This document shows, one piece after another, positions 3,391-20,438 of a DNA stretch of 25,493 nt; the first letter of the stretch is position 1; each line of letters starts with the position of its first letter. The position numbers were made by a program, and so were the translations under genes. The DNA lies in the NCBI GenBank assembly GCA_964415855.1, contig CAYQBZ010000003.1:1-25493 (forward strand), given 5' to 3'. Below the pieces are notes generated by a model. The model was not told where the DNA came from. It was given only the letters and a program-made list of their open reading frames with translations, and made no database searches. Origin of the DNA: an uncultured Rikenellaceae bacterium. GTDB lineage: Bacteria > Bacteroidota > Bacteroidia > Bacteroidales > VadinHA17.

Positions 3391-3876
3391 ATGACAGTAA
3401 AGGAATATAACAGGTCTGTTGAGGAATATGCCGATTCGCTTTACCGTTTCATCCGCACAAGTCTTAAGGATGAGGACAGGTCAAATGATATCGTCCAGGA
3501 CAGCTATGAGAAGCTGTGGAGGCATGTTGCTGAAATTGAATATCAGGTTGTTAAATCATGGTTATTCTCCACTGCTTATCACACTATGATTGATATTATC
3601 AGGAAGGAAAAAAGAATGATACGATTCGAGCAATCATATGAACAGGACCTGCTACATGAATCTCAATACAGTGATCTGAATGAGATCCTTCATGCTGCAG
3701 TGCAACGCTTACCTGAAGACCAGAAAACGTCGGTTTTGCTACGCGATTACGAGGGTTACAGCTACCGGGAGATCGGGGAGATAACCGGACAGAGCGAGGC
3801 ACAGGTAAAGATAAACATATACAGGGGACGGATTGCCCTGAAAAGCTATATTGGCAAAATTGAAACCGTACTTTAG
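3391..3876 (+). CDS. RNA polymerase sigma factor, ECF (sigma-24) subfamily
   Basis: 161 aa. Region 2 DIVQDSYEKLW...WLFSTAYHTMIDIIRK and region 4 LLRDYEGYSYREIGEITGQSEAQVKINIYRGRIALK. Confidence 0.95.
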   Translation: MTVKEYNRSVEEYADSLYRFIRTSLKDEDRSNDIVQDSYEKLWRHVAEIEYQVVKSWLFSTAYHTMIDIIRKEKRMIRFEQSYEQDLLHESQYSDLNEILHAAVQRLPEDQKTSVLLRDYEGYSYREIGEITGQSEAQVKINIYRGRIALKSYIGKIETVL

Positions 3877-3878
3877 CC

Positions 3879-4976: not shown

Positions 4977-4998
4977 CTTTTTCACCTCCCTCTTCGTC
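4973..4998 (+). promoter_or_regulatory. Second putative ECF-sigma promoter: GTAAC-N17-CGTC
   Basis: GTAAC at 4973-4977 (overlapping the anti-sigma TAA stop) and CGTC at 4995-4998, with the same spacing and T-tract after AAC as the 3343 motif. It lies about 40 bp upstream of the beta-barrel ATG. Confidence 0.65.
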
Positions 4999-5039
4999 AC
5001 AGCAGAAAGAACTTATTAAGAAACAAAAAAGTTACAGCC

Positions 5040-5981: not shown

Positions 5982-6010
5982 CTGATATTTCATTCCTGTA
6001 ATATTTCTTT

Positions 6011-6048
6011 ATGTTGCAGATATGCCATACATCGCGTATCTGCAACGT
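6011..6048 (+). terminator. 15-bp stem hairpin (REP-like palindrome, probable terminator of the ECF operon)
   Basis: ATGTTGCAGATATGC (6011-6025) pairs with GCGTATCTGCAACGT (6034-6048), with 2 G-U wobbles and an 8-nt loop. It is followed by TATTTTG and lies 30 bp after the barrel gene stop. Confidence 0.6.
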
Positions 6049-6051
6049 TAT

Positions 6052-6082
6052 TTTGATTCCTGCCTGCTACAACGTATATTTG
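6052..6082 (+). promoter_or_regulatory. Bacteroidota housekeeping promoter TTTG-N19-TATATTTG
   Basis: Exact match to the -33 TTTG / -7 TAnnTTTG consensus with a 19-nt spacer. It sits 24 bp before ATG 6107, which supports that start. Confidence 0.75.
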
Positions 6083-6106
6083 TGGTACACACCATTAGCC
6101 ATATTA

Positions 6107-6886
6107 ATGGAAAACAACATATTATCTCCCAGGGAGTTAAGAAGGTACAGTAAGCAGACCATGATACCGGAAATAGGGACGCATGGGCAGGAAAAATTAA
6201 AACAGGCAAAAGTTCTTGTTGTAGGTGCCGGCGGACTCGGATGCCCAATCCTTCAATATCTGACTGTTGCAGGTGTCGGTACGATCGGCATGGTCGAGTT
6301 CGATATGGTGAATGAGACAAACCTCCAGAGACAGGTCCTGTACGGATCAACTGATGTTGGTAAATTAAAGTCAATAATAGCCAAGAACCGCCTTGAGCAT
6401 CTAAATTCACTGGTAGAGTGTGAAATATTTAATCTTCGTCTTAATGCAGCAAATTCACTTAATATCTTAAAGGAATTTGATATTATTGTCGATGCAACGG
6501 ATAACCTTGAAACCAGGTATGTAATCAACGATTCATGTATTATTCTCAATAAACCAATGGTGCACGGTGCCATTTATAAATTTGAAGGGGTTGTTTCCGT
6601 TTTTAACTATAAAGGCGGGGCAACATACAGGTGTTATAATCCGGAACCTCCTGATAATGATTACAAAAATCCTTCACCTGCCCAGGTTGGTCTGCTGGGT
6701 GTCCTGCCAGGTATAACAGGAACCTATATGGCAAACGAAGTAATCAAAATAATTACCGGTACAGGTGACATCCTGAGCGGTAAAGTCCTTCTGATAAACA
6801 TTTTAAAGAACACATTCCATATATTTACTGTAAATAATATTCCTGAGAATCATAATATCAATGATTTAAGTGAATATGCCTTGTAG
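6107..6886 (+). CDS. HesA/MoeB/ThiF family E1-like adenylyltransferase (atypical, Cys-poor, no rhodanese domain)
   Basis: RYSKQ, VLVVGAGGLG, TNLQRQ, GKLK, VDATDN and GLLGVLPGITG. Start moved from the ORF-track 6011 to ATG 6107 (MENNILSPRE), because the upstream 32 codons overlap a hairpin and the promoter. Confidence 0.88.
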   Translation: MENNILSPRELRRYSKQTMIPEIGTHGQEKLKQAKVLVVGAGGLGCPILQYLTVAGVGTIGMVEFDMVNETNLQRQVLYGSTDVGKLKSIIAKNRLEHLNSLVECEIFNLRLNAANSLNILKEFDIIVDATDNLETRYVINDSCIILNKPMVHGAIYKFEGVVSVFNYKGGATYRCYNPEPPDNDYKNPSPAQVGLLGVLPGITGTYMANEVIKIITGTGDILSGKVLLINILKNTFHIFTVNNIPENHNINDLSEYAL

Positions 6887-6912
6887 GGAAGTGTCGCAAC
6901 ATGTCCCTGCAA
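6881..6912. repeat. 32-bp imperfect palindrome, GTAG-type REP-like
   Basis: TTGTAGGGAAGTGT-CGCA-ACATGTCCCTGCAA: 14-bp arms with 1 mismatch and 2 wobbles. It contains the TAG stop of the MoeB-like gene. Confidence 0.6.
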
Positions 6913-6941
6913 CAATAACAAGAACATTTCATAAATACAAT

Positions 6942-7649
6942 ATGAGACTATTACTTATCAGCAATTCCACAAATCCCGGAGAACCATATCTTGACTACCC
7001 CAAAAATAATATAAAGCATTTCCTGGGATACGAAAAGGTTACTGCTTTATTCATTCCCTATGCTGCCGTAACATTTTCATTTGATGACTATGAGAATAAA
7101 GTCTCCGGCAGGTTCCAAGAAATAGGTCATGATATAATTTCCATTCACAGGTTCAGCGATCCTGCTTCAGCAGTACTGAATGCCAGGGCAATTGTTATCG
7201 GCGGGGGCAATACATGGAATCTTCTGAAAACCTTATCAGAGAATAAGCTTATTGATGCTGTAAGGCAGAAAGTGATGGGCGGCACTCCTTATATTGGCTG
7301 GAGCGCCGGATCTAATGTGGCCTGTCCTACAATAAGAACCACCAATGATATGCCTGTGGTTGAACCAGGTTCATTCACTGCATTAAACCTTTTACCCTTT
7401 CAGATAAATCCCCATTATCTCGATGCCAATCCTGAAGGGCATGCGGGTGAAACAAGGGAGCAGAGGATTGAGGAATTTATTGAATTAAATCCGAATGTAT
7501 TTGTTGCAGGATTACGTGAGGGTACCATGCTGGTTTATGATAATGAGAAGTTAACACTGCAGGGCCCCCGGAAGATCAGAATTTTCAAAAAAGGGATGGT
7601 TCCGCTTGAGCTTGGCACTGAGGATGATTTATCCTTCCTACTGAGATAA
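6942..7649 (+). CDS. pepE: Dipeptidase E (alpha-aspartyl dipeptidase, peptidase S51)
   Basis: MRLLLISNST start (ATG 6942, shorter than the ORF track), LFIPYAAV, IGGGNT, nucleophile elbow GWSAG, PFQINPHY, HAGETREQRI and LREG. Confidence 0.95.
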   Translation: MRLLLISNSTNPGEPYLDYPKNNIKHFLGYEKVTALFIPYAAVTFSFDDYENKVSGRFQEIGHDIISIHRFSDPASAVLNARAIVIGGGNTWNLLKTLSENKLIDAVRQKVMGGTPYIGWSAGSNVACPTIRTTNDMPVVEPGSFTALNLLPFQINPHYLDANPEGHAGETREQRIEEFIELNPNVFVAGLREGTMLVYDNEKLTLQGPRKIRIFKKGMVPLELGTEDDLSFLLR

Positions 7650-7673
7650 AAGAAAATATTTACTCAAATGAAT

Positions 7674-7681
7674 TAACTTTG
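7674..7681 (+). promoter_or_regulatory. Possible -7 box (TAACTTTG) for the asmA-like gene
   Basis: Exact TAnnTTTG in the intergenic gap, but no TTTG -33 box at the expected distance. Confidence 0.4.
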
Positions 7682-7725
7682 TCTGCCGGTAATTCAAACG
7701 GTTGACAGTGACTTCCTGTTGATAT

Positions 7726-10338
7726 ATGATATTATTTTTAAAGATACTATCGCTTGCTTCTTTGATTATTAGAGGTATTATTATCTTGCTTTTCTCAGCT
7801 TCATTCTTTATGCAGGATAAGGTAGTTGACATAATAATCAGATCACTTAACAACAACATATCCACCAAACTGTTTACAGGCTCGTCCCATTTATCCTTTA
7901 TCCGCAGATTCCCAAAGGCTTCCGTTGAACTCAGGAATGTTCTGGTCCATTCATCATCGGATTTCAATTCAGCTGCGTTCCCCGGGAATACGGATACTCT
8001 TTTATCGGTAAGGTTTGTTTCAATTGAATTCAAAATAACGGATATTATTAAAGGTACTTACAACATTGAAAGTATCAGCGCAGGAGATGGCCTTATTAAT
8101 CTCTATTCCGATACGACCGGTCTTGTCAATTATAATATATCTGCAGGAAAGAGTAGTACCGAAAACTCTGATTTTATTATTGACCTTGACAAAATAACGC
8201 TGACAAATCTAAAAGCAACCTACAGTAATCTCGCCACCCGCCTGAAAATAGACGGAATTATTGACCATGCCCGGATAAGGAGCAGAATATCCGGAAATAA
8301 TATAGAATTCACCGCCGGAGCTGAAATGCTTGTAGACAGCCTTCATCTGTACAATACTAAAATCAATAACCCGTTTTCCACTGTAATAGATCTGAACCTT
8401 AGCAGCTCCGACACTGGCGTAGTATTCAACAAGGGCGTTCTTAAAGTTGAAGACTACGATTTCAGTATATCCGGGTTAGTCTCTTCCGATAATATGCTGG
8501 ATCTGCATATCACAGGAAACAATCTTGACCTTTCAAGGATCAGGAACTATCTGCCTGAAAAGCAATTAAACCTGGTATCAGAGTATAATCCGGCAGGGAT
8601 TCTTTCCGTTAACTGTCAGATCAAAGGACTTTTATCAAGGACATCTAATCCACATATTGAGATCACCACTGCCCTCAACGAAGGTCACATCTCTTACGGG
8701 AAATCTAATCTGGCTGTAAATGATCTTTCATTTTCCGGATTTTTTTCTAACGGAGCGGCAAATACTCCAAAAACCAGTACACTCTTAATCAACAACATAA
8801 AAGCAAGCCTTGGATCTTCAGATTATTCAGGCTCGTTCATCATAAACGGATTTGAAAATCCTTATGCCACCCTGACTTTAAAAGGCAGGGTATTCCCGGC
8901 AGAGATCAAAGAATTTTTTGCCCTGGAAAATATAGATGCTGCTTCCGGTTCGGCTGACATTGACCTTAAGGTGTCATCCTGTCTGTTACCTCGAAAACAG
9001 TATTCGGCTGGTGATGTTATGGATATGAAACCGGAAGGAACAATAGTCTTTGACTCACTCACCATAGGTTTCAATAATGACAGGTTTCACCTTGACAGGA
9101 TAAGCGGGAAGCTATTACTCTCAAAGACCATAAAGGCAAACGATTTACAGTTCTCATACAAAGGGCAGCTTATTAAGATAAATGGTGATTTTACCAATCT
9201 GCCTGAATGGCTTTACGGAAGGCCTGTTCGATTGGCAGCAACCGCGGATATAACATTCGACAGGTTAATTCCTGAAGTTTTTCTTGGGGATCCGTCTTCC
9301 GGCGATGGATCTGAAGGCAGAAAAAAAGCTGTTAATATGCCCGGTGATCTTATGCTGGATATCAGCTACAGCATAGACAGCTTATCGTATGATTCATTTT
9401 CCTCTTCAAAGATGACCGGCAGTCTTAATTACAAACCAGGACTGTTGACTTTTAACACAATAAACATGAAATCGTTAGAAGGCACTATCTCAGGTAATGG
9501 TTTCATTGTACAGAACAGGAACAAATCGTTGATTGGAAGGGGTAACTTCATTGTAACCGGAATAGATGTAAACAAGACTTTCATGGCATTTCATAATTTT
9601 GGTCAGGATTTTCTGAAGGCAGAGAATCTTAATGGTACCCTTTCAGGTTCATTTTCATTACTTCTGCCTATGGATTCACTTGCAAATCCCCAGATCAGGG
9701 CTCTGACAGCTGAAGGGAAATACGTTCTTACAAATGGAGCACTAATAAATTTTGATCCTGTAAAAGAACTATCAGAATTTATTGAACTTTCAGAACTTGA
9801 AAATATTAGCTTTGAGAAACTTGAAAACGATTTTTTTATAAAAAACAACTTTCTCTACATTCCTCAGATGGATGTTAAATCTTCTGCAGTTGACCTTTCG
9901 GTAAATGGCAGGCACAGTTTTGACAATGACTATGAATATCATGTCAAGATGCTGCTTTCAGAAATACTTAGCAAGAAAAGGAAGAAAACAAGGAGTAGTA
10001 TAACTGAATTTGGTGCTGTTCAGGATGATGGTCTGGGCCGTACATCACTATTATTAAAAGTCGAAAACAAGGGAGAGGAAGTTAAGGTTAGTTATGACAT
10101 TAAGGCTGCCGGTAATGAGATAAAGACCAACATCAAATCTGAAAGACAGACTTTAAAATCGATCCTTAACCAGGAATACGGTTGGTTCAAAGGCGATTCT
10201 TCTGTTCAGCAGAAACCGGCTGAGAATAAGTCGCGCTTCAGCATAACCTGGGATGAGGCAGCAATTGAACAAAATCCTGTGGATAGCACAGAAGCTAAAA
10301 AGGAAGGAATACTCAAAACTCTTTTCAGAAAGAAGTAA
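7726..10338 (+). CDS. AsmA-like family protein (inner-membrane anchored, beta-taco repeats)
   Basis: 870 aa with an N-terminal hydrophobic anchor and a long beta-strand-rich body. The C-terminus ISFEKLENDFFIKNNFLYIPQMDVKSSAVDLSVNGRHSFDNDYEYHV resembles the AsmA-like C-terminal region. Exact start uncertain. Confidence 0.8.
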   Translation: MILFLKILSLASLIIRGIIILLFSASFFMQDKVVDIIIRSLNNNISTKLFTGSSHLSFIRRFPKASVELRNVLVHSSSDFNSAAFPGNTDTLLSVRFVSIEFKITDIIKGTYNIESISAGDGLINLYSDTTGLVNYNISAGKSSTENSDFIIDLDKITLTNLKATYSNLATRLKIDGIIDHARIRSRISGNNIEFTAGAEMLVDSLHLYNTKINNPFSTVIDLNLSSSDTGVVFNKGVLKVEDYDFSISGLVSSDNMLDLHITGNNLDLSRIRNYLPEKQLNLVSEYNPAGILSVNCQIKGLLSRTSNPHIEITTALNEGHISYGKSNLAVNDLSFSGFFSNGAANTPKTSTLLINNIKASLGSSDYSGSFIINGFENPYATLTLKGRVFPAEIKEFFALENIDAASGSADIDLKVSSCLLPRKQYSAGDVMDMKPEGTIVFDSLTIGFNNDRFHLDRISGKLLLSKTIKANDLQFSYKGQLIKINGDFTNLPEWLYGRPVRLAATADITFDRLIPEVFLGDPSSGDGSEGRKKAVNMPGDLMLDISYSIDSLSYDSFSSSKMTGSLNYKPGLLTFNTINMKSLEGTISGNGFIVQNRNKSLIGRGNFIVTGIDVNKTFMAFHNFGQDFLKAENLNGTLSGSFSLLLPMDSLANPQIRALTAEGKYVLTNGALINFDPVKELSEFIELSELENISFEKLENDFFIKNNFLYIPQMDVKSSAVDLSVNGRHSFDNDYEYHVKMLLSEILSKKRKKTRSSITEFGAVQDDGLGRTSLLLKVENKGEEVKVSYDIKAAGNEIKTNIKSERQTLKSILNQEYGWFKGDSSVQQKPAENKSRFSITWDEAAIEQNPVDSTEAKKEGILKTLFRKK

Positions 10339-10392: not shown

Positions 10393-11556
10393 TTGAATAT
10401 TTACCGGAATAAGACCCTGGGAAGACTTTTGTTATTGTTTTTTGCAGTGTTTATCGGAATGGGTTCGCTGGTCTTTACAGGCAACCTGGTCGGCAAGCTC
10501 AAGGTTGAGGAACGGGAAAATGTAGCATTATGGGCTGAAGCTACCCGGCTCCTGTCTCTCCCCGATACCAGTCAGAATATTGAATTCCTGTCGTCAATAA
10601 TTGACAATAACAACACGGTCCCGGTTATTCTGACCGATGAATCTGACAGCATCATTTCTGCAAGAAATTTTGATGAATCAAAGATTGGCAATACCGGGTA
10701 TCTAAGGAAAGCTCTTCGAAAAATAAAAGAAAAAAACGATCCTATAGTAAATTACCTTGATGATGGCCATTATAACCTCATCTACTATAAAGACAGTATT
10801 ATACTTACAATGCTTATCTTCTATCCTTATGTACAGCTTGGAATAATAATACTATTTATCCTGGTCTCATATCTTGCTTTCAGCTCCTCGCAAAAAGCGG
10901 AGCAGAACCAGGTGTGGGTAGGTATGTCAAAAGAGACGGCCCATCAGCTGGGCACACCAACTTCTTCTCTTACAGGATGGATCGAGATACTGCAACATAA
11001 ATATCCCGATATTCCCATTACGAAAGAGCTGGCACTGGATGTCCAACGCCTGGAAAAGGTTACTGAAAGATTTTCAAGGATAGGATCCAAACCTGTTCTT
11101 GTTGAAGATAACATCATTTCAATTATCTCAAGGACAATTGATTATCTAAAGATGCGGACATCTTCAAAAGTGAAATTCAGAACCGATTATATCCCTGACA
11201 AAGAGGTAATTGTGCCGGTAAATGCAGCTCTGTTCGAATGGGTCATTGAAAACGTTTCAAAGAATGCCATTGACTCAATGGAAGGTGCCGGCACAATTAC
11301 CATACGTATTGCAGAGACTTCTAAAAATGCCATCGTTGATGTTTATGATACAGGCAAGGGTATCCCGAAATCGTTGGTAAAGAAAATCTTCAACCCGGGA
11401 TTTACTACAAAGCAAAGAGGCTGGGGACTGGGCCTCTCTCTTGCGAAAAGGATCATTGAGGAGTTTCATAACGGGCGTATCTTTGTGAGACAATCTGAGT
11501 CAGGAAAGGGATCCTGCATCAGGATCATTTTGAATAAGAATAATGAACAGCATTAA
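10393..11556 (+). CDS. Membrane sensor histidine kinase (orphan, no receiver)
   Basis: TTG start and two TM segments. Intact H-box ETAH(184)QLGTP, N-box ENVSKNAIDS, G1 DTGKG, F-box IFNPGFTTK and G2 GWGLGL. Confidence 0.93.
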   Translation: MNIYRNKTLGRLLLLFFAVFIGMGSLVFTGNLVGKLKVEERENVALWAEATRLLSLPDTSQNIEFLSSIIDNNNTVPVILTDESDSIISARNFDESKIGNTGYLRKALRKIKEKNDPIVNYLDDGHYNLIYYKDSIILTMLIFYPYVQLGIIILFILVSYLAFSSSQKAEQNQVWVGMSKETAHQLGTPTSSLTGWIEILQHKYPDIPITKELALDVQRLEKVTERFSRIGSKPVLVEDNIISIISRTIDYLKMRTSSKVKFRTDYIPDKEVIVPVNAALFEWVIENVSKNAIDSMEGAGTITIRIAETSKNAIVDVYDTGKGIPKSLVKKIFNPGFTTKQRGWGLGLSLAKRIIEEFHNGRIFVRQSESGKGSCIRIILNKNNEQH

Positions 11557-11568: not shown

Positions 11569-12825
11569 ATGAAAAGGGAAGATGTTGAGCTAATGGCGCC
11601 GGCAGGATCATATGAGTCGCTTATGGCAGCGATCCAGGGGAATGCTGATTCCGTGTATTTCGGTGCCGAACAGCTCAATATGAGAGCTGCATCCTCAAAT
11701 AATTTTACCATTAAAGACCTTGGCAAAATTGCATCAATATGCAGGGAAAATGGTCTTAAAAGCTATATTACACTTAACGTTGTTGTCTACGACCACGAAA
11801 TTAAGCAGATGCGTGCGATTATTGATGCTGCAAAAGAAAACGGAATATCAGCGGTTATTGCATCCGATCTTTCGGTAATCAATTATGCCTTTTCTTCAGG
11901 AATGGAGGTACATCTTTCAACACAACTGAATATCACAAATACTGAGTCCCTGAAGTTCTATTCACGCTGGGCCGATGTTGCAGTACTTGCCAGAGAATTA
12001 AACCTTGAGCAGGTCTGGCATATCTTTAACGCTATCAGGGAAGAAGAAATCAGGGGACCGAGCGGAGAACTTATCAAGATAGAGATGTTTGCCCATGGGG
12101 CCCTGTGTATGGCTGTCTCAGGCAAATGCTATTTAAGCCTGCATGAAAACGACAAGTCCGCAAACCGGGGTGAATGCTACCAGACATGCCGTAAATCATA
12201 TATCGTCACCAATAAGGAGAGCGGCTATGAACTGGAGATTGACAATGAATATATCATGTCTCCCAAGGACCTTTGCACAATTGGCTTTCTGGACAAACTG
12301 ACAGATGCAGGAGCCAGGGTCCTTAAAATTGAGGGAAGAGCGCGGTCGGCAGAATACGTTAAGGTGGTTTCATCGTGTTATGATGAGGCTTTGAAGGCGC
12401 TGGAGGAGGGAACCTTCGGCAGACAAAAAACGGAAGCATGGAGAGAAAGGCTTTCAACAGTGTTTAACAGAGGGTTCTGGGACGGATATTACCTGGGACA
12501 ACAGACAGGTGAATGGAACACAAATTATGGCTCGAGTGCCACAAAAAGAAAGATCTATCTGGGAAAAGTCACAAATTATTTTACTAAACTCAAAGTAGCT
12601 GAAATAAAGCTTGAAACGGGAGATCTGAAAAAAGGAGATACTATCATAATCACAGGACCCACAACGGGTGTTTTTGAAACAGTGACAGATGAAATCCGGG
12701 TTGATCTCACGGCTACTGAAAGAGCCATGAAAGGGGAACATTGTTCGATTAAGACACCGGTTTTCCTCAGGAGATCCGACAAGGTTTACAAATGGGTCGA
12801 TGCTAATGAAGTTAAGAGACAATAA
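11569..12825 (+). CDS. Peptidase U32 family protein, TrhP/YegQ-like Fe-S RNA hydroxylase
   Basis: ELMAPAG, ADSVYFG, HLSTQ, VLAREL, EMFAHGALCMAVSGKCYLS, NRGECYQTCR (4 Cys), SPKDL and KIEGR, plus a C-terminal beta-barrel (U32_C-like). Substrate not determinable from sequence. Confidence 0.88.
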   Translation: MKREDVELMAPAGSYESLMAAIQGNADSVYFGAEQLNMRAASSNNFTIKDLGKIASICRENGLKSYITLNVVVYDHEIKQMRAIIDAAKENGISAVIASDLSVINYAFSSGMEVHLSTQLNITNTESLKFYSRWADVAVLARELNLEQVWHIFNAIREEEIRGPSGELIKIEMFAHGALCMAVSGKCYLSLHENDKSANRGECYQTCRKSYIVTNKESGYELEIDNEYIMSPKDLCTIGFLDKLTDAGARVLKIEGRARSAEYVKVVSSCYDEALKALEEGTFGRQKTEAWRERLSTVFNRGFWDGYYLGQQTGEWNTNYGSSATKRKIYLGKVTNYFTKLKVAEIKLETGDLKKGDTIIITGPTTGVFETVTDEIRVDLTATERAMKGEHCSIKTPVFLRRSDKVYKWVDANEVKRQ

Positions 12826-12835
12826 ATCAGCCATC

Positions 12836-13870
12836 TTACCAGTTTATCTTATCTGCTGCATCAAGTATTTTTAAGGCATTGGTTTCAATATTATCGGTAT
12901 CCGTTTCGACATAGGTGACATTATTACTGCTTTTTTTCTTTAAACCGTACAGGTATGCTTTGTCATAGTACCTGAGGGTAATATCGATTGCTTTTGCAAA
13001 ATCCCTCTCTTCCACAGCCTTTAAGGCATCCTGTGTGTTATTGCCACCCAGCCTTTTACTGATTTTCATAACAGACGCTTTCAGGGATTCTTCCGGGTAG
13101 GTGGAATATTCCTCAAGCAGCCTTGGCAACCTTGTCTCAACGCTCATCATAAGAACGATGGCAGGACTTGACTGCATATTAAGATATAATCCATCAGGAA
13201 TAAAAACAGAGCCGATATTTTTACTTTCATCCTCAACCCATAGAGCATTGCCAGTATCTTTTTTTTTCCACCTGTTGAAAAGCAAATTTGCAAAATACTC
13301 CGATGTCGGTTGAGCAGGCTGCCCGAGTGACCCGAATGCTGATCCCTTGTGATTGGCCAGGCCCTCAAGATCGATAACCTGATGGCCCAGCTGGTTCATG
13401 TACCTCAGAATTTGAGTTTTGCCACTGCCGGTCATCCCTCCCAGGACAATCATTTTTCTTTTAACAGAAAGATTATCAAGTATATAATTGCGATATGACT
13501 TGTATCCTCCCTCAAGTATTTCCGTTTTAATATCCGCAAGGGAAAACAGCCAGGCCATTGCTTCCGAGCGCATGCCACCCCTCCAGCAATGGACAAGCAG
13601 TTCTCCGTTCCTTGAAACTGAAAGAGCCTCCTTCAGCTTATCTGACATTGTGGGACCGGCATCCTTAAGACCTTGAATTATTGCAGGTATTCGTCCCTCC
13701 TTTTTATATCTGGTTCCAACTGCTTCTCGTTCCTTATCGTTAAAAATAGGGATATTTACTGCGCCCGGAATATGACCCTGGTAAAATTCTGAAGGAGACC
13801 TGACATCAGCTACCGGAATTCTTTCCGAGAGGTCCAGGAAATGTTCCACCCCGATCTTTCTTGAAATCAT
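12836..13870 (-). CDS. mnmH: tRNA 2-selenouridine(34) synthase
   Basis: Rhodanese domain (DVRSPSEF..GHIPGAVNIP, HCWRGGMRS) followed by a P-loop domain (GMTGSGKT, IDLEGLANHKGSAFG, WVEDESKNIG, YYDKAY). Confidence 0.95.
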   Translation of the reverse strand: MISRKIGVEHFLDLSERIPVADVRSPSEFYQGHIPGAVNIPIFNDKEREAVGTRYKKEGRIPAIIQGLKDAGPTMSDKLKEALSVSRNGELLVHCWRGGMRSEAMAWLFSLADIKTEILEGGYKSYRNYILDNLSVKRKMIVLGGMTGSGKTQILRYMNQLGHQVIDLEGLANHKGSAFGSLGQPAQPTSEYFANLLFNRWKKKDTGNALWVEDESKNIGSVFIPDGLYLNMQSSPAIVLMMSVETRLPRLLEEYSTYPEESLKASVMKISKRLGGNNTQDALKAVEERDFAKAIDITLRYYDKAYLYGLKKKSSNNVTYVETDTDNIETNALKILDAADKINW

Positions 13871-13921: not shown

Positions 13922-16750
13922 TCAGCTAATGAAATATTTGGCAAACAATCTCTTCAGCTCTTCTATTCTGACCGGTTTTGATATAAAATCCTTTATTCCT
14001 GCCATCTCCGCCTTTTTTCTTGACTCAGGCATATTATCAGCAGTAAATGCAACCACAAGTGCAGAACTATCATTTTCCAGAATCTTTTGCGTGGCTTCGA
14101 AGCCGTCCATTTCGGGCATTATCAGGTCCATGAAGATAAGATCATATTTTTTGGTCTTTGAATTAAGATAACCTTCATAACCATCATCTGCTATATCAAA
14201 TGCATATCCCAGATTTTTAAGCATTGTACCGATAACCTTCTGGTTCATTTTGTTATCTTCAACAATAAGGATCTTAATATCGTTTCTTACCCTCCCGACC
14301 GGGACAGATGAAGCCGGATCTTCTATGAAAGGGAAGCTGGTTTTTAAGGCGCGCAGTAAATCTCCTATGTCAAAAGGTTTCAGAAGATAATGATCGATCC
14401 CAAGCGTATAACAGGTCATATAATTCCCCTTCCTGTCGTTGGAACTTATCATGAGCAAAATAAATTTGCCGGACAGCCTGTTCTCCCATATGGCCCTTGC
14501 CGGTTCAAACCCATCAAAATCATTATCATCAAAGATAATTATCAGGTCATACTTTTCTTCCGGAAAATTCAAGTTAGTCCGAATCTGGTTAACAGTTGAC
14601 TTCATATAGGTTGTTACGTTCACAGCGAGCCCCATTTTATGCAGGGGCCCCAGAGTGTCTTCATCCCGGTTCTGATTTCCGGTGATGACCAGTGATTTTA
14701 TCTTATCAAAGGATGTAATTCTTTCGACAGAGAGATCCTTAACCGGTCTTTCATTTGAATACAGGATCAAAGTGAAGGTTACTTTTGTCCCCTTATCATC
14801 TAAAAGACCTGAAGGGCTAACTGCAGATAACTTACCTCCCATTAATTCTATCAACTGTTTAGCAAGAATCGTACTGAAACCAGACTCATCATGGTTCCTG
14901 GCTACTTTTGATTCTATATTAACAAAATCACCGAAGATCTTTTTAAGAGTGGCGCTGTCAAAGCTTAAACCGGTATCCCGTAGTTCAAATCCCATTGTAA
15001 TGATCCCGTTCTTTTCGCTTTTCAGCATACACTCCAAGCGTATCTCCCCCTTTGCAGTGTTACTTACAGAATGGTTGATCAGGTTTGTCAGTACCTGCCT
15101 CAACCTGAAAGGATCACCGATAACACTCTGCGGTATCTTATCGTCGATTTTTGATATTAGTTCGATTTCACCGGTTGAGATATGTGTCTTTGCAAGATCA
15201 GTACAATACAAAATTTCCTCTCTGATATTGAAAGGTATCTCGTCAAGAATCATCTTCCCTGATTCTATCTTTGAAAAATCAAGTATGTCATTAATAATAT
15301 TCAGCAATACTTCCGTTGACCTGTTGAGAAGTCCTACAATTTCTTTTACTTCAACAGGAAGATCATATTTATCAAGAACTTCCGTCATTCCTATGATACC
15401 ATTCAGGGGGGTCCTTATCTCATAGCTCATCCTAGCCAGGAACTCCGATTTGGCTACATTGGCTTTGGCTTCCTGCTTACGTGCCGATTCCAGTAATGTA
15501 ACATCTATCAATATTTCCATGCAGGCATCTTCTTCTCCAAGGAAGTTCACAGGAATGCTGTTTCTGAAAAGGATAGTCTCACCTATCTCTTTCTTAATTA
15601 TTACAAATCTGTCCGGATTAAATGAATTGCCAAGGTATTTCGAGAAATAATCACTGTCATCGGGAATGGATGTTTCAGGGAATATCTTTCCCTTCATATC
15701 AGATTCACTGTTAAAAGAATAATATGATGCAGCAACCTTATTGGCTTTTATAATTTCCCTGCTCTTATTATGCACTATCACACCTACCGGCATCTCTTCA
15801 ATAATTTTCAGAAGCATTTTTTCAGAAGAATACAAGCGATCCATTTCTGCTTTCCGGGACTTATTATATCGCCAGAAAATATAGATTATCACCTGTATCA
15901 GAAACAAGGTTCCCAATACTATGAACAACGAATTTCGTATGATATACTTCTGAAAAAACACTGTAGGAGCTGAAAATACCAGTCCAAGATCTCTCTGAAG
16001 AAGCTGTGTGGAATAGAATGAGGATAATATTGCACTTCTTTTTCCATTGATAACGGCATTATTAATAATATTACCTATTGATCCGCCTGCAAGACTCTCT
16101 GTGATCTTATCAAGCTGACCATACTCGATCACCCCTTCATAATTGTCATATACTATTTCACCGGAATCACTTACAACCCATTGCCACTGATAATCCTGCA
16201 GATTGAATTTTTCAAAGATCTCAGAAAAATATCTCTGGTAATCAACGGTGACCACGATGTTCCCAATTATCTCATTATCGCTTGTTTTAAAAACAGGCAG
16301 GTAATAATTAAACTTCCTGTTTTCATATACAAGCTGTTCCATCTGATATATCTTTGCCTGTTCATGTAGGACAAACGGCTGTTCGAGCCAGTCACCGGAA
16401 TCATAATCCTTTTTCAAGGTGAATTCATTCCTGCTATTATCAGATAGTTTTATTCCTGTTACAAATTCCTGGTATTTTGAAAAGAACAGCTTCATGCTTT
16501 CCTTGGCCCTGAACTGTATTTCCGGATCCGTGAAAAACCGGTCCAGATCACCTGAAAAGCTTATCTGGTTAAGGTCACTTAAAAATCCGTTATTAGTATT
16601 ATCAACGGACAGTCCAACTATCTGAACCTGCCTGTCGAGTAATTCCACTATATAGTTTATCTGCTTATTGTAAAGGCTTTTATAATAGAAATAATTAGCT
16701 GCCATTATAATCAGGAAAGCTGAATATACAAGTATGAGGATCCTTCTCAT
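13922..16750 (-). CDS. Hybrid sensor kinase/response regulator with degenerate kinase core (pseudokinase)
   Basis: Domain order: TM, Cache-like periplasmic domain, TM, PAS-like domain, HisKA (EFLARMSYEIRTPLNG), HATPase-like domain, degenerate REC, intact REC (ILIVEDN, IFMD875LIMPEMDG, FTA, KP). Confidence 0.9.
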   Translation of the reverse strand: MRRILILVYSAFLIIMAANYFYYKSLYNKQINYIVELLDRQVQIVGLSVDNTNNGFLSDLNQISFSGDLDRFFTDPEIQFRAKESMKLFFSKYQEFVTGIKLSDNSRNEFTLKKDYDSGDWLEQPFVLHEQAKIYQMEQLVYENRKFNYYLPVFKTSDNEIIGNIVVTVDYQRYFSEIFEKFNLQDYQWQWVVSDSGEIVYDNYEGVIEYGQLDKITESLAGGSIGNIINNAVINGKRSAILSSFYSTQLLQRDLGLVFSAPTVFFQKYIIRNSLFIVLGTLFLIQVIIYIFWRYNKSRKAEMDRLYSSEKMLLKIIEEMPVGVIVHNKSREIIKANKVAASYYSFNSESDMKGKIFPETSIPDDSDYFSKYLGNSFNPDRFVIIKKEIGETILFRNSIPVNFLGEEDACMEILIDVTLLESARKQEAKANVAKSEFLARMSYEIRTPLNGIIGMTEVLDKYDLPVEVKEIVGLLNRSTEVLLNIINDILDFSKIESGKMILDEIPFNIREEILYCTDLAKTHISTGEIELISKIDDKIPQSVIGDPFRLRQVLTNLINHSVSNTAKGEIRLECMLKSEKNGIITMGFELRDTGLSFDSATLKKIFGDFVNIESKVARNHDESGFSTILAKQLIELMGGKLSAVSPSGLLDDKGTKVTFTLILYSNERPVKDLSVERITSFDKIKSLVITGNQNRDEDTLGPLHKMGLAVNVTTYMKSTVNQIRTNLNFPEEKYDLIIIFDDNDFDGFEPARAIWENRLSGKFILLMISSNDRKGNYMTCYTLGIDHYLLKPFDIGDLLRALKTSFPFIEDPASSVPVGRVRNDIKILIVEDNKMNQKVIGTMLKNLGYAFDIADDGYEGYLNSKTKKYDLIFMDLIMPEMDGFEATQKILENDSSALVVAFTADNMPESRKKAEMAGIKDFISKPVRIEELKRLFAKYFIS

Positions 16751-16813: not shown

Positions 16814-17746
16814 TCATCTGTATTTACGGTTATCGCCCTCCATTATATTAAGATAACTTCTGTACCTGAGAATGTCTATTTCAGATCTTTCCACTGCTGC
16901 CCTTACTGCACATCCCGGTTCATCGAGATGAAGACAATTATTGAACCTGCAGTCCCTGGCTGTCCTGAAGATCTCCGGGAAAAAATGGTAAATCTCATTT
17001 CTCTCCATATCCACAACGCCAAATCCCCTAATTCCGGGAGTATCAATAACCTTACCCCCAAATGGCATTTCATGCATTTCAGGAAATGTTGTAACATGTT
17101 TGCCCTGCCGGTGATAATCAGATATTGCCGAGGTTTTGAGTTTAAGGGCGGGATTGAATATATTCAGCAGGGTTGATTTCCCGACACCAGAATTGCCTGA
17201 TATCAGGGTTATCTTATTTGCCATTATTAGCCGCAGCTTATCCAGGTTGGTTTTTTCTGTCAGTGATAATCGGATTGACTCATATCCGATTTTATTATAG
17301 ACTGACTCGAGATATTCCAATTTATCCATTTCCTCCCTGCCATAGAGATCAATCTTGTTTATAATTATCCTTGCAGGCACCCTGTAAGCTTCTGCGGTTA
17401 TAAGGAACCTGTCAATAAACTCTATGGGCGTCTCAGGCAATATAACCGTTACCATAAGAAAAGCCTGGTCAATATTGGCTGCAATTATCTGCGATTGTCT
17501 TGAGAGGTTGGAAGATTTTCTAAGAATATAATTTTTACGATCAAGAACTTCAGTAATAGCGCCTGTTCCGGTTTTAATATCAATCCCGAAAAATACCCTG
17601 TCACCTACAGCTATCGGATTGGTTGTCCTCAATGCCCTGATCCTCAGTTTACCCCTGATTGTACAGTTATATATAAATCCCCTGTCACTGAGTACTTTAT
17701 AATTACTGCCGGTAGATTTTAATACGACGCCTGTTTCCAAATGCAA
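16814..17746 (-). CDS. rsgA: Ribosome small subunit-dependent GTPase A
   Basis: OB-fold start (GVVLKSTG, AVGDRV), AANID, NKID, GNSGVGKST, GKHVTT, DTPG and Zn site CRFNNCLHLDEPGC. TTG start at 17746 or 17740. Confidence 0.97.
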   Translation of the reverse strand: MHLETGVVLKSTGSNYKVLSDRGFIYNCTIRGKLRIRALRTTNPIAVGDRVFFGIDIKTGTGAITEVLDRKNYILRKSSNLSRQSQIIAANIDQAFLMVTVILPETPIEFIDRFLITAEAYRVPARIIINKIDLYGREEMDKLEYLESVYNKIGYESIRLSLTEKTNLDKLRLIMANKITLISGNSGVGKSTLLNIFNPALKLKTSAISDYHRQGKHVTTFPEMHEMPFGGKVIDTPGIRGFGVVDMERNEIYHFFPEIFRTARDCRFNNCLHLDEPGCAVRAAVERSEIDILRYRSYLNIMEGDNRKYR

Positions 17747-17843: not shown

Positions 17844-19049
17844 TTAATTATCAGATGCCATAAGAAGGAATGGCTTCATTTCAAAACTGTGATAATATGG
17901 CCTGAGTCTTTCAACATTATAATAATCCGAAACCTTAACAATCTTTTTTGAAGAGGTCACGACATCAATAGGCAGATTGTCATATCTTCCGTTCTTGAGA
18001 ACAACGATCCTCCCATGTACATTTTTAAGGACCAGGTCAAGTGCAAGGTTCCCATAAGCCATCGGTACTATTGAATCGAGAAAATCAGGATCCCCTCCTC
18101 GTACCATATAACCGAGTTTCTGGTTGATTACGTTAATAGTTTTTCCCTTATTAAATTTACCCGAGAGATCTTTAAGTTTGGCAGATACCAGGTCACCTAT
18201 TCCCCCAAGCTTCGCATGCCCGTAGGCATCCTTTTCATGGTCTGCGAATATCATTTCCCCTCCCTTGAACATTGCACCTTCGGAAACCAGCACAACCGAA
18301 TATTTACTGGGATTATGATTCCTGTCTTCCACAAGCAGCCTGGTCAGAAGGTTTATATCGAATTCATATTCGGGGATGACACACCTGTTCGCCGCACCTG
18401 CCATTGTTGGCAGCATTGCCGTAAATCCCGCGTATCTTCCGAATACCTCAAGCACCAGTAGTCTTTCGTGCGATCCGGCCGATGTCCTGAGGCTGTTTGT
18501 CATCTGTATGGTACGTGTAACACAGGTGCTGAATCCAATGCAATAATCGGTTCCGGGAACATCGTTATCCATCGTCTTGGGGATAGCAACCACATTAACT
18601 CCTTTTTTATAAAGATGGACACCATAGCTGAGAGTATCATCTCCGCCAATAGGAATAAGATAGTCAACACCCAGCCATTCCAGATTCTTTATAATTTCAG
18701 GTGTCAGATCATTTATCTCCGCATCGTATGCAGACCGCAGGTGTTCCGGAATATTATCCTTTGTCATATGGCTGGGTCTGGTCCTGGAAGTATGCAGGAA
18801 AGTACCGCCGGTTCGTCCTGCCTTATTAACTATATCGTCAGTAAGTATCTGAAAATTATTACTGTTATCTGCTTTGGTATCCCTTATTAATTCTGTAATA
18901 CCGGCCCATCCCCGGCGAAGTCCGATCACCCTATATCCTTCCCTGTTAGCGCGTATGGTTACCGCACGAATTGCCGGATTAAGTCCGGGTACATCTCCCC
19001 CTCCCGTAAGAATAGCAATTATTCCCTTTTTTGTTTTCTGAGTTGCCAT
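17844..19049 (-). CDS. PfkA-family phosphofructokinase, PPi-type signature, FGR variant
   Basis: LTGGGDVPGLN, GGTFLHTSR, IGGDDT, PKTMDND, EVFGRYAG, VSEGA and LGYMVRGG. Confidence 0.9.
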   Translation of the reverse strand: MATQKTKKGIIAILTGGGDVPGLNPAIRAVTIRANREGYRVIGLRRGWAGITELIRDTKADNSNNFQILTDDIVNKAGRTGGTFLHTSRTRPSHMTKDNIPEHLRSAYDAEINDLTPEIIKNLEWLGVDYLIPIGGDDTLSYGVHLYKKGVNVVAIPKTMDNDVPGTDYCIGFSTCVTRTIQMTNSLRTSAGSHERLLVLEVFGRYAGFTAMLPTMAGAANRCVIPEYEFDINLLTRLLVEDRNHNPSKYSVVLVSEGAMFKGGEMIFADHEKDAYGHAKLGGIGDLVSAKLKDLSGKFNKGKTINVINQKLGYMVRGGDPDFLDSIVPMAYGNLALDLVLKNVHGRIVVLKNGRYDNLPIDVVTSSKKIVKVSDYYNVERLRPYYHSFEMKPFLLMASDN

Positions 19050-19187: not shown

Positions 19188-20438
19188 TCAGTATGATTCA
19201 CTTTCGTCCCACTCAAGTATCTTAAAGAAATCATATTCTTCAGGCTTCTCAACGTATTTTCTGGCGCTCCGGTAATCGGCCTTGGTAATGTAATGCAGGT
19301 TGTTCCTGTAGATCAGCTGCACCTTTTCTGTTTCAACATTAACCAGTCTTGGTTTCACCTTTCCGGATTCATCTTCAACATCCTTCAGGAATAAGGGTAT
19401 AATGTCACCTTTCCTGTCGACAGTGACCATGCAGCCTGTTAATCCGTCTTTGAATAATTTGTATACGCCCAGTCCGAGGCGGGTAGCATAATTCAGATCG
19501 TAAGCAACGGGCCGGCAGCACCGCAATTCATATCCCATTTCATTGGGTCGTGACTTTACGGTTATCCTAAGTCCCTTAAGAGCCTGCTGCGTCAGCATAT
19601 TAAAGATATGTGACTTACTTACATTACCCAGTTCAGGGTGCCCGTGATCATCATAGGTAAAATTTATTCCTGTATCGATTATCTCTTTTTCACTCATGAA
19701 ATGGAATACTCCCTCAGAGATAATGGCAACACCATAGTCAATTCCCAGAAGTCTTCTTTTCACCATAGAGGAGATAACAAGCCTGGTTATTTTGTCAAAG
19801 GTGATCTTGGTCCTGTTAAAGATCTCCGGGATGATTATCATTGGGTAATGACAGGCAGTGCCAATTCCAAATGCCAGGTGCCCGGCTTCACGTCCCATCG
19901 CGGATACCACAAACCAGTTTCCGCTGGTACGAGCATCTTCATAAATAGTCGTTGCCAGTCTTACACCCTCCTCCTTCGCCGAATGGTAGCCGAATGTTGG
20001 GGTTCCTTCAGGAAGAGGCAGGTCATTATCGATCGTTTTGGGAACATGGATGTTCTTGACATTCATCTTCTGTTCCATAAGATATTTTGTCAGACGGTTT
20101 GCGGAGGAAGCAGTATCATCACCTCCGATGGTAACCAGAAGCTTGACGTTATTCTTTTTAAAGAAATCCACTTTGAATTCATCATCCTTGGGTTTGTGCC
20201 TGCTCATCTTCAACGCAGAGCCGCCACGGCTGTATATCTGGTCAGCAAACTCAAAATCGAGATAATCATAAGTAGGTTCTGCGGCAAAGAGTGATTTATA
20301 GCCACCATTGATCCCAAGTACCGTATATCCATTCTGTAAAAATATTTTGGTGACTGAACTGATTACTGTATTAATTCCGGGTGCCGGACCTCCGGCACAT
20401 AATATAGCCACTGCATCTTTCATAATTTCTCTTTTCAT
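19188..20438 (-). CDS. pfp: Pyrophosphate-dependent 6-phosphofructokinase (PfkA family)
   Basis: AGGPAPGIN, GGSALKMSR, IGGDDT, PKTIDND, AMGREAG, ISEG and MGYELRC. The GGDD plus PKT combination is the PPi-use signature. Confidence 0.85.
   Translation of the reverse strand: MKREIMKDAVAILCAGGPAPGINTVISSVTKIFLQNGYTVLGINGGYKSLFAAEPTYDYLDFEFADQIYSRGGSALKMSRHKPKDDEFKVDFFKKNNVKLLVTIGGDDTASSANRLTKYLMEQKMNVKNIHVPKTIDNDLPLPEGTPTFGYHSAKEEGVRLATTIYEDARTSGNWFVVSAMGREAGHLAFGIGTACHYPMIIIPEIFNRTKITFDKITRLVISSMVKRRLLGIDYGVAIISEGVFHFMSEKEIIDTGINFTYDDHGHPELGNVSKSHIFNMLTQQALKGLRITVKSRPNEMGYELRCCRPVAYDLNYATRLGLGVYKLFKDGLTGCMVTVDRKGDIIPLFLKDVEDESGKVKPRLVNVETEKVQLIYRNNLHYITKADYRSARKYVEKPEEYDFFKILEWDESESY

Follow-up and report, generated by a model that had tools for sequence, protein, structure and literature searches.

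A hybrid histidine kinase with tyrosine at the phospho-histidine position, conserved in uncultured Bacteroidales and very likely unable to autophosphorylate

The window analysed here (the whole stretch of DNA, 25,493 nucleotides) encodes a 942-aa hybrid sensor kinase in which tyrosine stands at the position of the phosphorylated histidine and the ATP-binding boxes are eroded. Judging from its sequence, the protein is very likely unable to autophosphorylate. At least 80 species of uncultured Bacteroidales maintain the Tyr state under strong selection. The gene of this Tyr clade goes back to a true hybrid histidine kinase (HK), which in other Bacteroidia sits at the same locus (RsgA-HK-MnmH). 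This one orthologue group has seen at least four to six independent losses of the histidine. Pseudo-histidine kinases are known and few have been studied (DivL, RetS, PsmA), and a recent survey puts the share of HisKA domains without the His at about 0.9% (PMC12632262). The first-pass annotation of this DNA knew of no characterised example in Bacteroidota, and our literature searches found none. The case is also a warning for annotation, as the proteins of this kind, at present annotated as 'histidine kinase' or 'response regulator', are very likely incapable of autophosphorylation. The gene and its parts are the following.

13922..16750, (-): hybrid sensor kinase gene, predicted kinase-dead, 942 aa, ATG start (ORF list, Pfam)
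15965..16663, (-): dCache sensor, extracytoplasmic, aa ~30-262 (AF2, Foldseek), with TM1 (aa ~5-22) and TM2 (aa ~270-293) on either side
15503..15814, (-): PAS-like domain, cytoplasmic, aa ~313-416 (weak Pfam PAS/PAS_8, AF2 secondary structure)
15257..15454, (-): DHp / HisKA domain, aa 433-498 (Pfam HisKA, 68 bits)
15422-15424, (-): Tyr443 codon TAT, phospho-His position (alignments to GacS, RetS)
14768..15118, (-): CA (HATPase_c), degenerate, aa 545-661 (Pfam, 49 bits)
15056-15088, (-): N-box TNLINHSVSNT, aa 555-565
14963-14977, (-): G1 DTGLS, aa 592-596
14861-14887, (-): G2 ESGFSTILA, aa 622-630
14336..14698, (-): REC1, pseudo-receiver, aa ~685-805 (AF2 secondary structure, alignments)
13949..14272, (-): REC2, canonical receiver, aa 827-934 (Pfam Response_reg, 1e-31)
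14126-14128, (-): REC2 D875 codon

The protein runs TM1, dCache, TM2, PAS, DHp (with the Tyr), degenerate CA, pseudo-receiver and receiver, in a full-length, unbroken ORF that has 120 full-length homologues at 69-76% identity. HisKA, HATPase_c and Response_reg all score above the Pfam gathering thresholds, the last over residues 827-934 and over a second, weaker stretch. The succession of HisKA, HATPase_c and a receiver with the DD-D-T-K quintet is that of a hybrid kinase; no NCBIfam model reaches its cutoff (the best, BarA NF008318, scores 314 bits vs 890). The first-pass annotation proposed a Cache-like sensor, which is confirmed as a double Cache, and a PAS-like domain. The AF2 model of the sensor (aa 30-270; pLDDT 90.5, pTM 0.85) has the long N-terminal helix and the two PAS-like alpha/beta modules of a double Cache domain, placed between the two TM helices, and its top Foldseek matches are dCache ligand-binding domains (2p7j, 3lid and 5wbf, also 6e09; TM 0.6-0.67). 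Pfam dCache_1 (PF02743) gave weak matches, only in the orthologues. The PAS-like domain is indicated by weak matches to PAS and PAS_8 (E 0.006-0.02, the PAS match spanning aa 313-369) and by AF2 secondary structure. We used the full-length AF2 model (pLDDT 71, pTM 0.35) for secondary structure and lid confidence only, its domain arrangement being too poor to judge REC2-DHp docking or closure of the ATP pocket.

Residues 441-448 read MSYEIRTP (H-box SY443EIRTPLN), and residue-by-residue alignments place Y443 on the phospho-His of GacS (7z8n), RetS (6dk7), AHK and ShkA. The change to Tyr in this ORF and the erosion of the N, G1 and G2 boxes had been read in the first pass; the ORF list and the alignments confirm the former, and comparison with GacS and RetS the latter. 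In the N-box, N556 is the first Asn, whereas H560 stands at the second Asn and S563 at the Lys. G1 (DxGxG) keeps D592 and G594 and has S596 in place of the last Gly, and the three G2 positions (GxGxG) read E622, G624 and S626, so that the NxxxNxxK, DxGxG and GxGxG of a competent kinase are not found together in this protein. To call these boxes dead, as was done initially, goes beyond the erosion itself: three residues survive, N556 (the Asn that binds Mg), D592 (the Asp that binds adenine) and G594 (the first Gly of G1). They are still constrained in the Tyr clade, and because of their conservation residual nucleotide binding may persist. The ATP lid (aa 609-625) is modelled by AF2 with pLDDT <50. 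The ExxT phosphatase motif is intact, and its E444 and T447 are invariant in both sequence sets described below (120 and 80 sequences).

Position 443 is never His in 200 orthologues. It is Tyr in 116 and Phe in 4 of the 120 closest database proteins, and Tyr in 79 and Phe in one of 80 species-representative genomes (50-75% identity). The codons at these 80 loci are TAT (71), TAC (8) and TTT (1). Phe is also found at this position in P0129, P0130 and P0146, and Ala in P0123. Because Phe or Ala stands in for Tyr in several members, phosphorylation of the tyrosine is unlikely to be the conserved purpose of the change, and we rejected it as a conserved mechanism. The Tyr-clade gene has a dN/dS in the range 0.05-0.25. 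By domain, the lowest values are those of REC2 (0.047) and then DHp (0.053), followed by CA (0.108), PAS (0.119), REC1 (0.127) and the sensor (0.133). At the ATP-box positions the entropy reaches 1.20 bits in the Tyr clade vs 0.02 in the canonical orthologues, two sets that are equally divergent (mean pairwise identity about 58%), and the background of the CA domain in the Tyr clade is 1.33. Six of the nine ATP-box positions have lost their constraint in this clade and drift at the background rate. Purifying selection stayed strong on all the rest, from the sensor and the PAS through the DHp with its ExxT, the fold of CA and the pseudo-receiver to the whole active site of the last receiver. 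The homologue alignment and dN/dS estimates suggested in the first-pass annotation thus bear out its proposal of a selected pseudokinase, neither a sequencing error nor a recent pseudogene: Tyr or Phe is conserved throughout, by TAT and TAC codons, under purifying selection and with constraint lost at the ATP boxes. With catalytic residues lost under purifying selection, the protein belongs to the pseudo-histidine kinases, the loss of activity itself being predicted from the residues.

The gene is flanked by two conserved neighbours that mark the orthologous locus.

16814..17746, (-): RsgA GTPase gene, conserved upstream neighbour (Pfam)
12836..13870, (-): MnmH (tRNA 2-selenouridine synthase) gene, conserved downstream neighbour (NCBIfam NF008750, 370 bits vs a cutoff of 241)

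RsgA lies upstream in 77 of the 80 loci and in the distant loci L081, L084, L086, L087, L090 and L091; MnmH lies downstream in 71 of the 80 and in L084, L086, L087, L090 and L091. The order RsgA, HK, MnmH, continued by a U32 peptidase gene and, on the opposite strand, a small HK, is that of the window and of 64-77 of the 80 loci. A scan found no terminator between rsgA, the HK gene and mnmH (its promoter model is for sigma-70 and does not cover Bacteroidota promoters). The same locus holds the canonical kinase P0133 and the His-bearing sister P0128. Taken with 119 relatives, P0133 defines a canonical set in which His is present in 119 of 120 sequences and N-N-K, D-G-G and G-G-G are invariant. 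Other occupants of the locus have lost the His: Arg takes its place in P0132, Asp in P0160, Gln in P0143, and Tyr in P0308, whose boxes are intact. In the tree made without the box columns, every His-less lineage has a His-bearing sister with 100% bootstrap. The residues replacing His, loss by loss, are Tyr twice (main clade and P0308), Arg/Gln, Gln/Phe, Asp/Gln/Ser/Lys, and Gln. We rejected an origin by duplication, of the kind that would give a RetS/GacS-like pair of paralogues: His-bearing and His-less forms share the locus across lineages. The pseudokinase is the degenerated orthologue itself and not a duplicate, so a paired origin of the RetS/GacS type is not indicated.

All the losses kept the dCache sensor and a fully intact terminal receiver. 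It is conceivable, if on the whole rather unlikely, that the conserved job of the protein is independent of its own kinase activity even in the canonical forms, and that it acts as a ligand-gated phosphoryl acceptor or phosphatase in a network fed by other donors. If this were true, the orthologue series would be a natural stepwise record of the passage from sensor kinase to pseudokinase, with intact forms, P0308 (where His was lost first), P0128 and P0131 (where erosion of CA came first) and fully degenerate forms as its stages. The Thr of ExxT is lost in other His-less lineages (P0136, P0160, P0168, P0173 and P0187), and phosphatase activity can therefore not be what all members of the orthologue group have retained. 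The group makes a large and clean comparative set: a single fixed locus supplies hundreds of orthologues, the kinase-competent and the kinase-dead among them are equally divergent, and several losses are independent of one another. This makes questions on the transition (which residues are lost first, what must stay, what else changes in the genome) testable by comparative genomics and by the biochemistry of paired orthologues.

The last receiver had been described as canonical, and its active site is indeed complete, with E831, D832, D875, T903 and K925 in the motifs IVEDN (829-833), FMD875LIMP, FT903AD and SK925P. D832, D875 and K925 are invariant in every sequence set and, together with T/S903, in more than 300 sequences from all lineages. 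REC1 shows the beta-alpha pattern of a receiver in AF2 secondary structure and carries LVITGN (aa 687-692), with T690 and G691 where a receiver would have its acidic pair. The absence of this pair had been reported correctly; the Phe said to hold the usual Asp position needs qualification, since in an HMM built from REC2 the phospho-Asp column holds either a gap or F740, and a conserved D741 follows one residue later. Strand beta3 is predicted by AF2 at 736-742, and S769 and K791 are also conserved. REC1 thus combines a receiver fold with the lack of the acidic pair and/or the phospho-Asp that characterises pseudo-receivers. It had been counted among four lesions of the protein, a count that does not stand: because catalytically canonical orthologues likewise lack the acidic pair, REC1 is a pseudo-receiver of ancestral origin, similar to those of ShkA, RetS and the plant receptor 7p8e (AHK type), and not a lesion.

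The closest solved relatives are GacS and RetS, not DivL (phmmer E of 2.7e-45, 1e-34 and 9e-15, respectively). RetS of P. aeruginosa (PDB 6dk7, 6dk8, 7n0e; Foldseek TM 0.66) has the same order HisKA - HATPase_c - REC1 - REC2 without Hpt, retains xExxT and a canonical REC2, and is degenerate in the same three boxes of CA (SLLDNAFKQT, DSGHPFD and GSHLGL vs NLINHSVSNT, DTGLSFD and ESGFST in the 942-aa protein). However, RetS keeps the H-box His, lacks the first N-box Asn (N556 here), and has a known GacS-like partner, whereas no partner gene is present in the 25-kb window. Its sensor is 7TMR-DISMED2, in contrast to the two-TM dCache and PAS input of our protein. The likeness thus concerns domain order, degenerate G boxes and the canonical terminal receiver, and extends neither to orthology nor to sensor homology. 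Since the orthologues of the 942-aa protein are canonical kinases of Bacteroidia, its degeneration was independent of that of RetS, in a different phylum. GacS / BarA (PDB 7z8n), the closest solved sequence, shares the type of DHp and has a spacer or pseudo-receiver before the receiver, but it carries the His, intact N, G1 and G2 boxes, a HAMP and a C-terminal Hpt, whereas the 942-aa protein has no His, degenerate boxes, no Hpt and an input made of dCache and PAS. ShkA (Caulobacter; PDB 6qrj), the best Foldseek match (E 6e-25), and the plant AHK-type 7p8e, the best whole-protein phmmer match, show the same succession of kinase core, pseudo-receiver and true receiver. They are active kinases with His, and ShkA is cytosolic and regulated by c-di-GMP. 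The pseudo-receiver of ShkA gates the access of DHp to REC2 (10.1101/675454; PMC12632262).

Our leading explanation, put forward tentatively and not quite as a probable one, is that of a RetS-like, kinase-dead modulator regulated by dCache, whose D875 would be phosphorylated by something else, a reasonable suggestion that the first-pass annotation had also made in proposing phosphorylation in trans. [quoted passage not shown] The 942-aa protein, devoid of autophosphorylation, would be a signal-regulated modulator of a phosphorelay driven by one or more other kinases. D875 of REC2 would take the phosphoryl group from the His~P of a partner kinase or, by reverse transfer, from an Hpt protein. 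[quoted passage not shown] Ligand binding by dCache/PAS would tune the strength with which the pathway is drained or blocked, and a DHp heterodimer with the partner kinase may be an additional mode. Against this explanation, the window encodes neither a partner kinase nor an Hpt or a response regulator. The conservation of N556, D592 and G594, the origin by degeneration of the orthologue itself and the loss of the ExxT Thr elsewhere in the group also count against it. The only kinase nearby, at 10393-11556, was considered and rejected as an obvious partner: it is an orphan of the unrelated AtoS/NtrB type, with a different DHp class and on the opposite strand.

The label 'DivL-like' given in the first-pass annotation fits the Tyr, but not the architecture, the lesions in CA or the sequence, which is nearer RetS and GacS. 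We judge improbable a reversed signalling in which the Tyr-bearing DHp-CA would sense a free phosphorylated single-domain response regulator and signal back via PAS to a separate kinase. DivL of Caulobacter crescentus (PDB 4q20) has the identical His-to-Tyr change in an otherwise intact xEIRTP H-box, keeps ExxT and is under selection; it has no kinase or phosphatase activity, binds ATP analogues weakly, and its DHp binds the free response regulator DivK~P (PMC4211667), the target being CckA. The rank of DHp as the second most constrained domain of our protein also suits such a role. Yet DivL is distant (E 9e-15; Foldseek rank 44, behind GacS, RetS, ShkA and HK853), and it has several PAS domains in the cytoplasm but neither an extracytoplasmic sensor nor receivers, whereas our protein has a dCache input and two receiver-type domains, its own canonical receiver being the obvious docking partner of DHp. 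Moreover, a single transition (CAT to TAT) turns His into Tyr, and the Tyr arose twice and is sometimes replaced by Phe or Ala, so the shared residue may reflect mutational accessibility and good packing.

We give similarly little credence to a self-contained switch, in which small donors such as acetyl phosphate would phosphorylate REC2, the DHp controlled by dCache/PAS would be only its phosphatase, and REC2~P would report on ligand and metabolic state. The invariant REC2 active site, the invariance of ExxT in the Tyr clade and the lack of a partner encoded nearby agree with it, and recurrent loss of the kinase in an unduplicated orthologue is easiest when an alternative phosphodonor is always available. 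It sits poorly with the loss of the ExxT Thr in other His-less lineages and with the wide differences in acetyl phosphate reactivity among the receiver domains of hybrid kinases.

A phosphorylation-independent scaffold, with the core and receivers as interaction modules and D875 unused, seems less plausible still. Its model would be PsmA of Streptomyces venezuelae, a hybrid HK-like pseudokinase, conserved in its family, without the H-box His or key residues for ATP binding, whose receiver Asp is dispensable for detectable function (PMC12963549). PsmA, a cytoplasmic protein in which a linker is long and disordered, has no ExxT, and its residue at the His position varies freely, whereas in the Tyr clade the Tyr is fixed and both ExxT and the receiver active site are invariant. 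The conservation of the whole phosphorylation quintet (D832, D875, T/S903 and K925 in the more than 300 sequences), in the domain with the lowest dN/dS, is expected only if phospho-chemistry is used.

It is very improbable that the protein is still a kinase, autophosphorylating on Tyr443 or another residue from a remodelled functional ATP site. In favour of it are the conservation of N556, D592, G594, the F-box (F606, F609) and R618, and an ATP lid of normal length. However, Tyr gives way to Phe (4/120, 1/80, P0129, P0130, P0146) or Ala (P0123), six positions of the ATP boxes change as fast as the background, and the list of invariant residues includes no His in DHp helix 1. For DivL, autophosphorylation on Tyr is said to have been claimed at first. 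DivL itself is without autokinase activity (PMC4211667), and Gly-to-Ala changes in G2 abolish ATP binding in GacS (PMC8498467). Finally, a sequencing error or decaying pseudogene, for which only the unusual residues speak, has a negligible probability and is already refuted by the full-length ORF, by the dN/dS of 0.05-0.25 and by the same state in 120 plus 80 independent assemblies.

The kinase-like ORF and every motif quoted for it by the first-pass annotation, including those of both receivers, are in place, and Pfam matches frame them as follows.

13922-16750, minus strand: kinase-like ORF, 942 aa
15422-15424, minus strand: codon TAT of the H-box MSY443EIRTP, with Tyr in the phospho-His column
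aa 313-369: PAS, weak Pfam matches
aa 433-498: HisKA (Pfam)
aa 545-661: HATPase_c (Pfam)
aa 555-565: N-box, TNLINHSVSNT
aa 592-596: G1 box, DTGLS
aa 622-630: G2 box, ESGFSTILA
aa 687-692: first receiver (REC1), LVITGN
aa 827-934: Response_reg (Pfam), with a second, weaker stretch
E831 D832, D875, T903, K925: active site of the last receiver (REC2)

We fixed the box correspondences by residue-by-residue alignment to GacS, RetS, a plant AHK-type receptor, and ShkA, which places Y443 in the phospho-His column. In the N-box of the window copy, the first Asn survives as N556, His560 replaces the second, and Ser563 the Lys; G1 reads D592-x-G594-x-S596 and G2 reads E622-x-G624-x-S626. The first N-box Asn and the G1 Asp bind Mg2+ and the adenine ring in other histidine kinases (HK853/EnvZ structures). 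Because these residues are retained, the ATP site is rightly called 'eroded', while 'dead' is a deduction. The earlier reading of the protein as a pseudokinase is well supported, and its description of a dead ATP site needs correction, since N556, D592, and G594 remain. The protein has no Hpt domain. A 247-aa antisense ORF inside the gene (14682-15425, plus strand) comes from mechanical ORF calling alone.

The Tyr-bearing state is selected, not accidental. The best 120 database matches are all full length, with 69-76% identity, and have Tyr (116) or Phe (4) at column 443; D832, D875, and K925 of REC2 are invariant among them. Among species-representative genomes, a scan recovered 80 loci (50-75% identity). 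All come from MAGs of uncultured Bacteroidales, for some of which the depositors give the name Rikenellaceae, and column 443 is Tyr in 79 of the loci and Phe in one (codons TAT 71, TAC 8, TTT 1). The dN/dS values, computed by the Nei-Gojobori method for the 13 pairs with dS <1, range from 0.05 to 0.25; by domain, they are 0.047 in REC2, 0.053 in DHp, 0.108 in CA, 0.119 in PAS, 0.127 in REC1, and 0.133 in dCache. This excludes a sequencing error or a recent pseudogene, whose probability is negligible and against which the first-pass annotation had also argued; close homologues with His and a dN/dS near 1, the pattern that annotation had set against a selected pseudokinase, are clearly not what we find. 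Within the former ATP site, H560 (codon 15071-15073) is a conserved replacement specific to the clade and present in most of its core (103/120 matches and 53/80 loci).

When cluster representatives (50% identity) were searched exhaustively with HMMER and their key residues tabulated, a series of colinear proteins of ~940 aa emerged, whose identity to the window protein falls from 66% to 27%. Down to ~43-47% identity they carry Tyr, Phe, or Ala together with degenerate boxes; P0128, a representative at 45%, has His and intact G1 and G2. The majority at 27-36% identity is fully canonical (H; N-N-K; D-G-G; G-G-G). Several other proteins are His-less: they have Arg (P0132), Phe (P0147), Asp (P0160), Ser (P0173), or Lys (P0187), and Gln occupies the His position in P0136, P0143, P0168, P0193, and P0247. 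In the window, genes for a phosphofructokinase (PFK), RsgA, the kinase-like protein, and MnmH share one strand, and the opposite strand carries those for a U32 peptidase, a small kinase resembling AtoS, and a protein of 870 aa; this neighbourhood is retained in 64-77 of the 80 loci. The locus of the canonical P0133 reads RsgA, histidine kinase (HK), MnmH, small ORF, U32 peptidase, small HK, and large protein. Those of the His-bearing P0128 and P0134 read RsgA - HK and HK - ORF - RsgA, and P0132 (Arg), P0160 (Asp), P0143 (Gln), and P0308 (Tyr) are each flanked by RsgA and MnmH. His-bearing and His-less proteins occupy one locus and are therefore positional orthologues: the gene is orthologous to canonical, active kinases and has degenerated.

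We compared the Tyr clade with a canonical set of P0133 and 119 relatives (from Marinilabiliales, Bacteroidales, or Bacteroidota MAGs, where named). The two sets are equally divergent, with mean pairwise identities of 0.59 and 0.58, respectively. The canonical set has His in 119/120 proteins and is essentially invariant at all nine ATP-box positions (three each in N, G1, and G2), where mean entropy is 0.02 bits vs 1.20 bits in the Tyr clade. The latter value is at the level of the clade's CA-domain background (1.33), and only N556, D592, and G594 are still constrained. No other sequence-level evidence speaks as strongly for the abandonment of ATP-dependent catalysis as this contrast. At three positions the window copy has decayed further than its clade: at S563, where the clade has R/K/E, and at S596 and S626 (clade Gly 119/120 and 71/80).

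Loss of the His was recurrent. In a neighbour-joining tree of 931 columns, from which the ten diagnostic columns were removed, every His-less lineage is placed beside a His-bearing sister. Bootstrap support is 94% for the Tyr clade and 100% for its grouping with P0128 (His), for P0308 (Tyr) with P0365 (His), for the P0160 group with P0133 (His), for P0193 (Gln) with P0148 (His), for P0132/P0136, and for P0143/P0147. Since regain of His and of nine canonical box residues is implausible, His was lost at least four times in the orthologue group, and probably six. P0308, the sole His exception in the canonical set, has a completely canonical box background; its gene (5001-7847 on the contig loci L087-L089) occurs on 7 assembled contigs that derive from several samples. 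Its His-to-Tyr change arose independently, with N, G1, and G2 still canonical, and may represent an early stage of the same trajectory, in which His goes before the ATP site decays. The opposite intermediates are P0128 (L081) and P0131, of the sister lineage of the Tyr clade: both keep His, with the N-box already degenerate in the former (N..T..E) and the N-box and G2 in the latter (N..I..D; E-G-T).

The rest of the protein is under strong constraint, which covers dCache, PAS, DHp with its ExxT motif, the CA fold, the pseudo-receiver, and the complete REC2 active site. The sensor (aa 30-270) is a double Cache domain, with an AF2 model at pLDDT 90.5 and pTM 0.85 whose best Foldseek matches are dCache domains that bind ligands in kinases and chemoreceptors (TM 0.6-0.67). 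In the AF2 model REC1 folds as a receiver; T690 G691 replace the acidic pair, and in an HMM built from REC2 the phospho-Asp column has a gap or F740, followed by a conserved D741. The first-pass annotation had counted REC1 among the lesions. Canonical orthologues equally lack the acidic pair, so it is an ancestral pseudo-receiver rather than a lesion accompanying His loss. The HisKA phosphatase motif is kept in the H-box, where E444 and T447 do not vary across the Tyr clade; the ExxT Thr is lost in some other His-less lineages.

By sequence, the closest solved protein is GacS (7z8n; 2.7e-45), followed by RetS (6dk7/6dk8/7n0e; about 1e-34); by fold, the closest are ShkA, RetS, and GacS. RetS matches the window protein in its HK-REC1-REC2 order and is damaged in the same trio of boxes (SLLDNAFKQT, DSGHPFD, and GSHLGL in RetS). 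A pseudo-receiver, as REC1 is here, also occurs in ShkA, RetS, and the plant AHK-type receptor 7p8e. RetS cannot autophosphorylate because its HATPase domain is degenerate, its REC2 D858 accepts phosphoryl groups from the GacS His, its HExxT T428 confers transmitter phosphatase activity, and the RetS core prevents GacS from autophosphorylating (PMC5992135). ATP binding is lost in RetS, and Gly-to-Ala changes in G2 abolish it in GacS (PMC8498467).

We tentatively favour, at somewhat under even odds, a RetS-like protein that acts as a signal-gated sink, phosphatase, or blocker on a relay driven by other kinases. The protein, having lost the His and with its glycine-rich ATP boxes under relaxed constraint, would no longer autophosphorylate. 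D875 would still be phosphorylated, and the donor would then have to be something else. The DHp would still dock a receiver, probably dephosphorylating it, and dCache/PAS input would modulate these activities. The main weakness of the RetS-like explanation is that no Hpt or response regulator is encoded within the window. A reverse sensor like DivL, the label first given to this protein and in need of correction, is unlikely: the likeness is limited to the Tyr, and DivL (4q20) scores 9e-15 and ranks 44 by Foldseek. DivL has neither kinase nor phosphatase activity, and its DHp reads DivK~P (PMC4211667). Just as doubtful is a self-contained switch in which acetyl phosphate feeds the complete REC2 site. 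A phosphorylation-independent scaffold is less probable again; the Streptomyces PsmA, a recently described hybrid pseudo-HK, has a variable 'His' position and a dispensable receiver Asp (PMC12963549), and here D875 is invariant. Residual or Tyr kinase activity, with N556 and D592 retained on one side and ATP boxes at background entropy on the other, is very improbable.

In a 2025 survey, His is missing in 0.9% of HisKA domains (PMC12632262), so pseudo-HKs are a known kind, though rarely characterised. Our literature search found none described in Bacteroidota. The family is a new, large, and uncharacterised addition to them, and its interest grows with the repeated, independent conversion of a single syntenic orthologue.

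The kinase-like gene lies among translation and RNA-modification genes (11569-13870 and 16814-17746) encoding RsgA, MnmH (tRNA 2-selenouridine synthase; its NCBIfam match exceeds the cutoff), and a U32 peptidase similar to TrhP/UbiU, an arrangement that persists where kinase identity falls to 27-35%. An ORF of 165-236 aa, with no Pfam match, separates mnmH from the peptidase gene in three distant loci (L084, 9920-10612; L086, 9406-10116; L087, 9106-9603); the window lacks this ORF, and there mnmH and the peptidase gene are directly adjacent. The small kinase (10393-11556, plus strand; 387 aa, two TM, TTG start) is an AtoS/NtrB/ZraS-type orphan whose His is intact ('ETAHQLGTP'), with canonical N/G1/G2 boxes and no adjoining response regulator; it is kept nearby in 68/80 Tyr-clade loci and in L084, L086, and L087. 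The 870-aa protein (7726-10338, plus strand) has an N-terminal TM segment, no Pfam or NCBIfam match, and, by eye only, an AsmA/TamB-like appearance; it neighbours the kinase gene in 64/80 loci and has a counterpart of 851-899 aa in the distant loci. The tandem phosphofructokinase-family genes (17844-19049 and 19188-20438, minus strand) share ~25% identity; the first is 85-93% conserved across the clade, and the second adjoins it in only about a dozen loci. Finally, the region 3391-5981 (plus strand) encodes an ECF sigma factor (3391-3876), then a protein of 365 aa that has no match and is possibly an anti-sigma factor, and then an outer-membrane beta-barrel protein (5040-5981).
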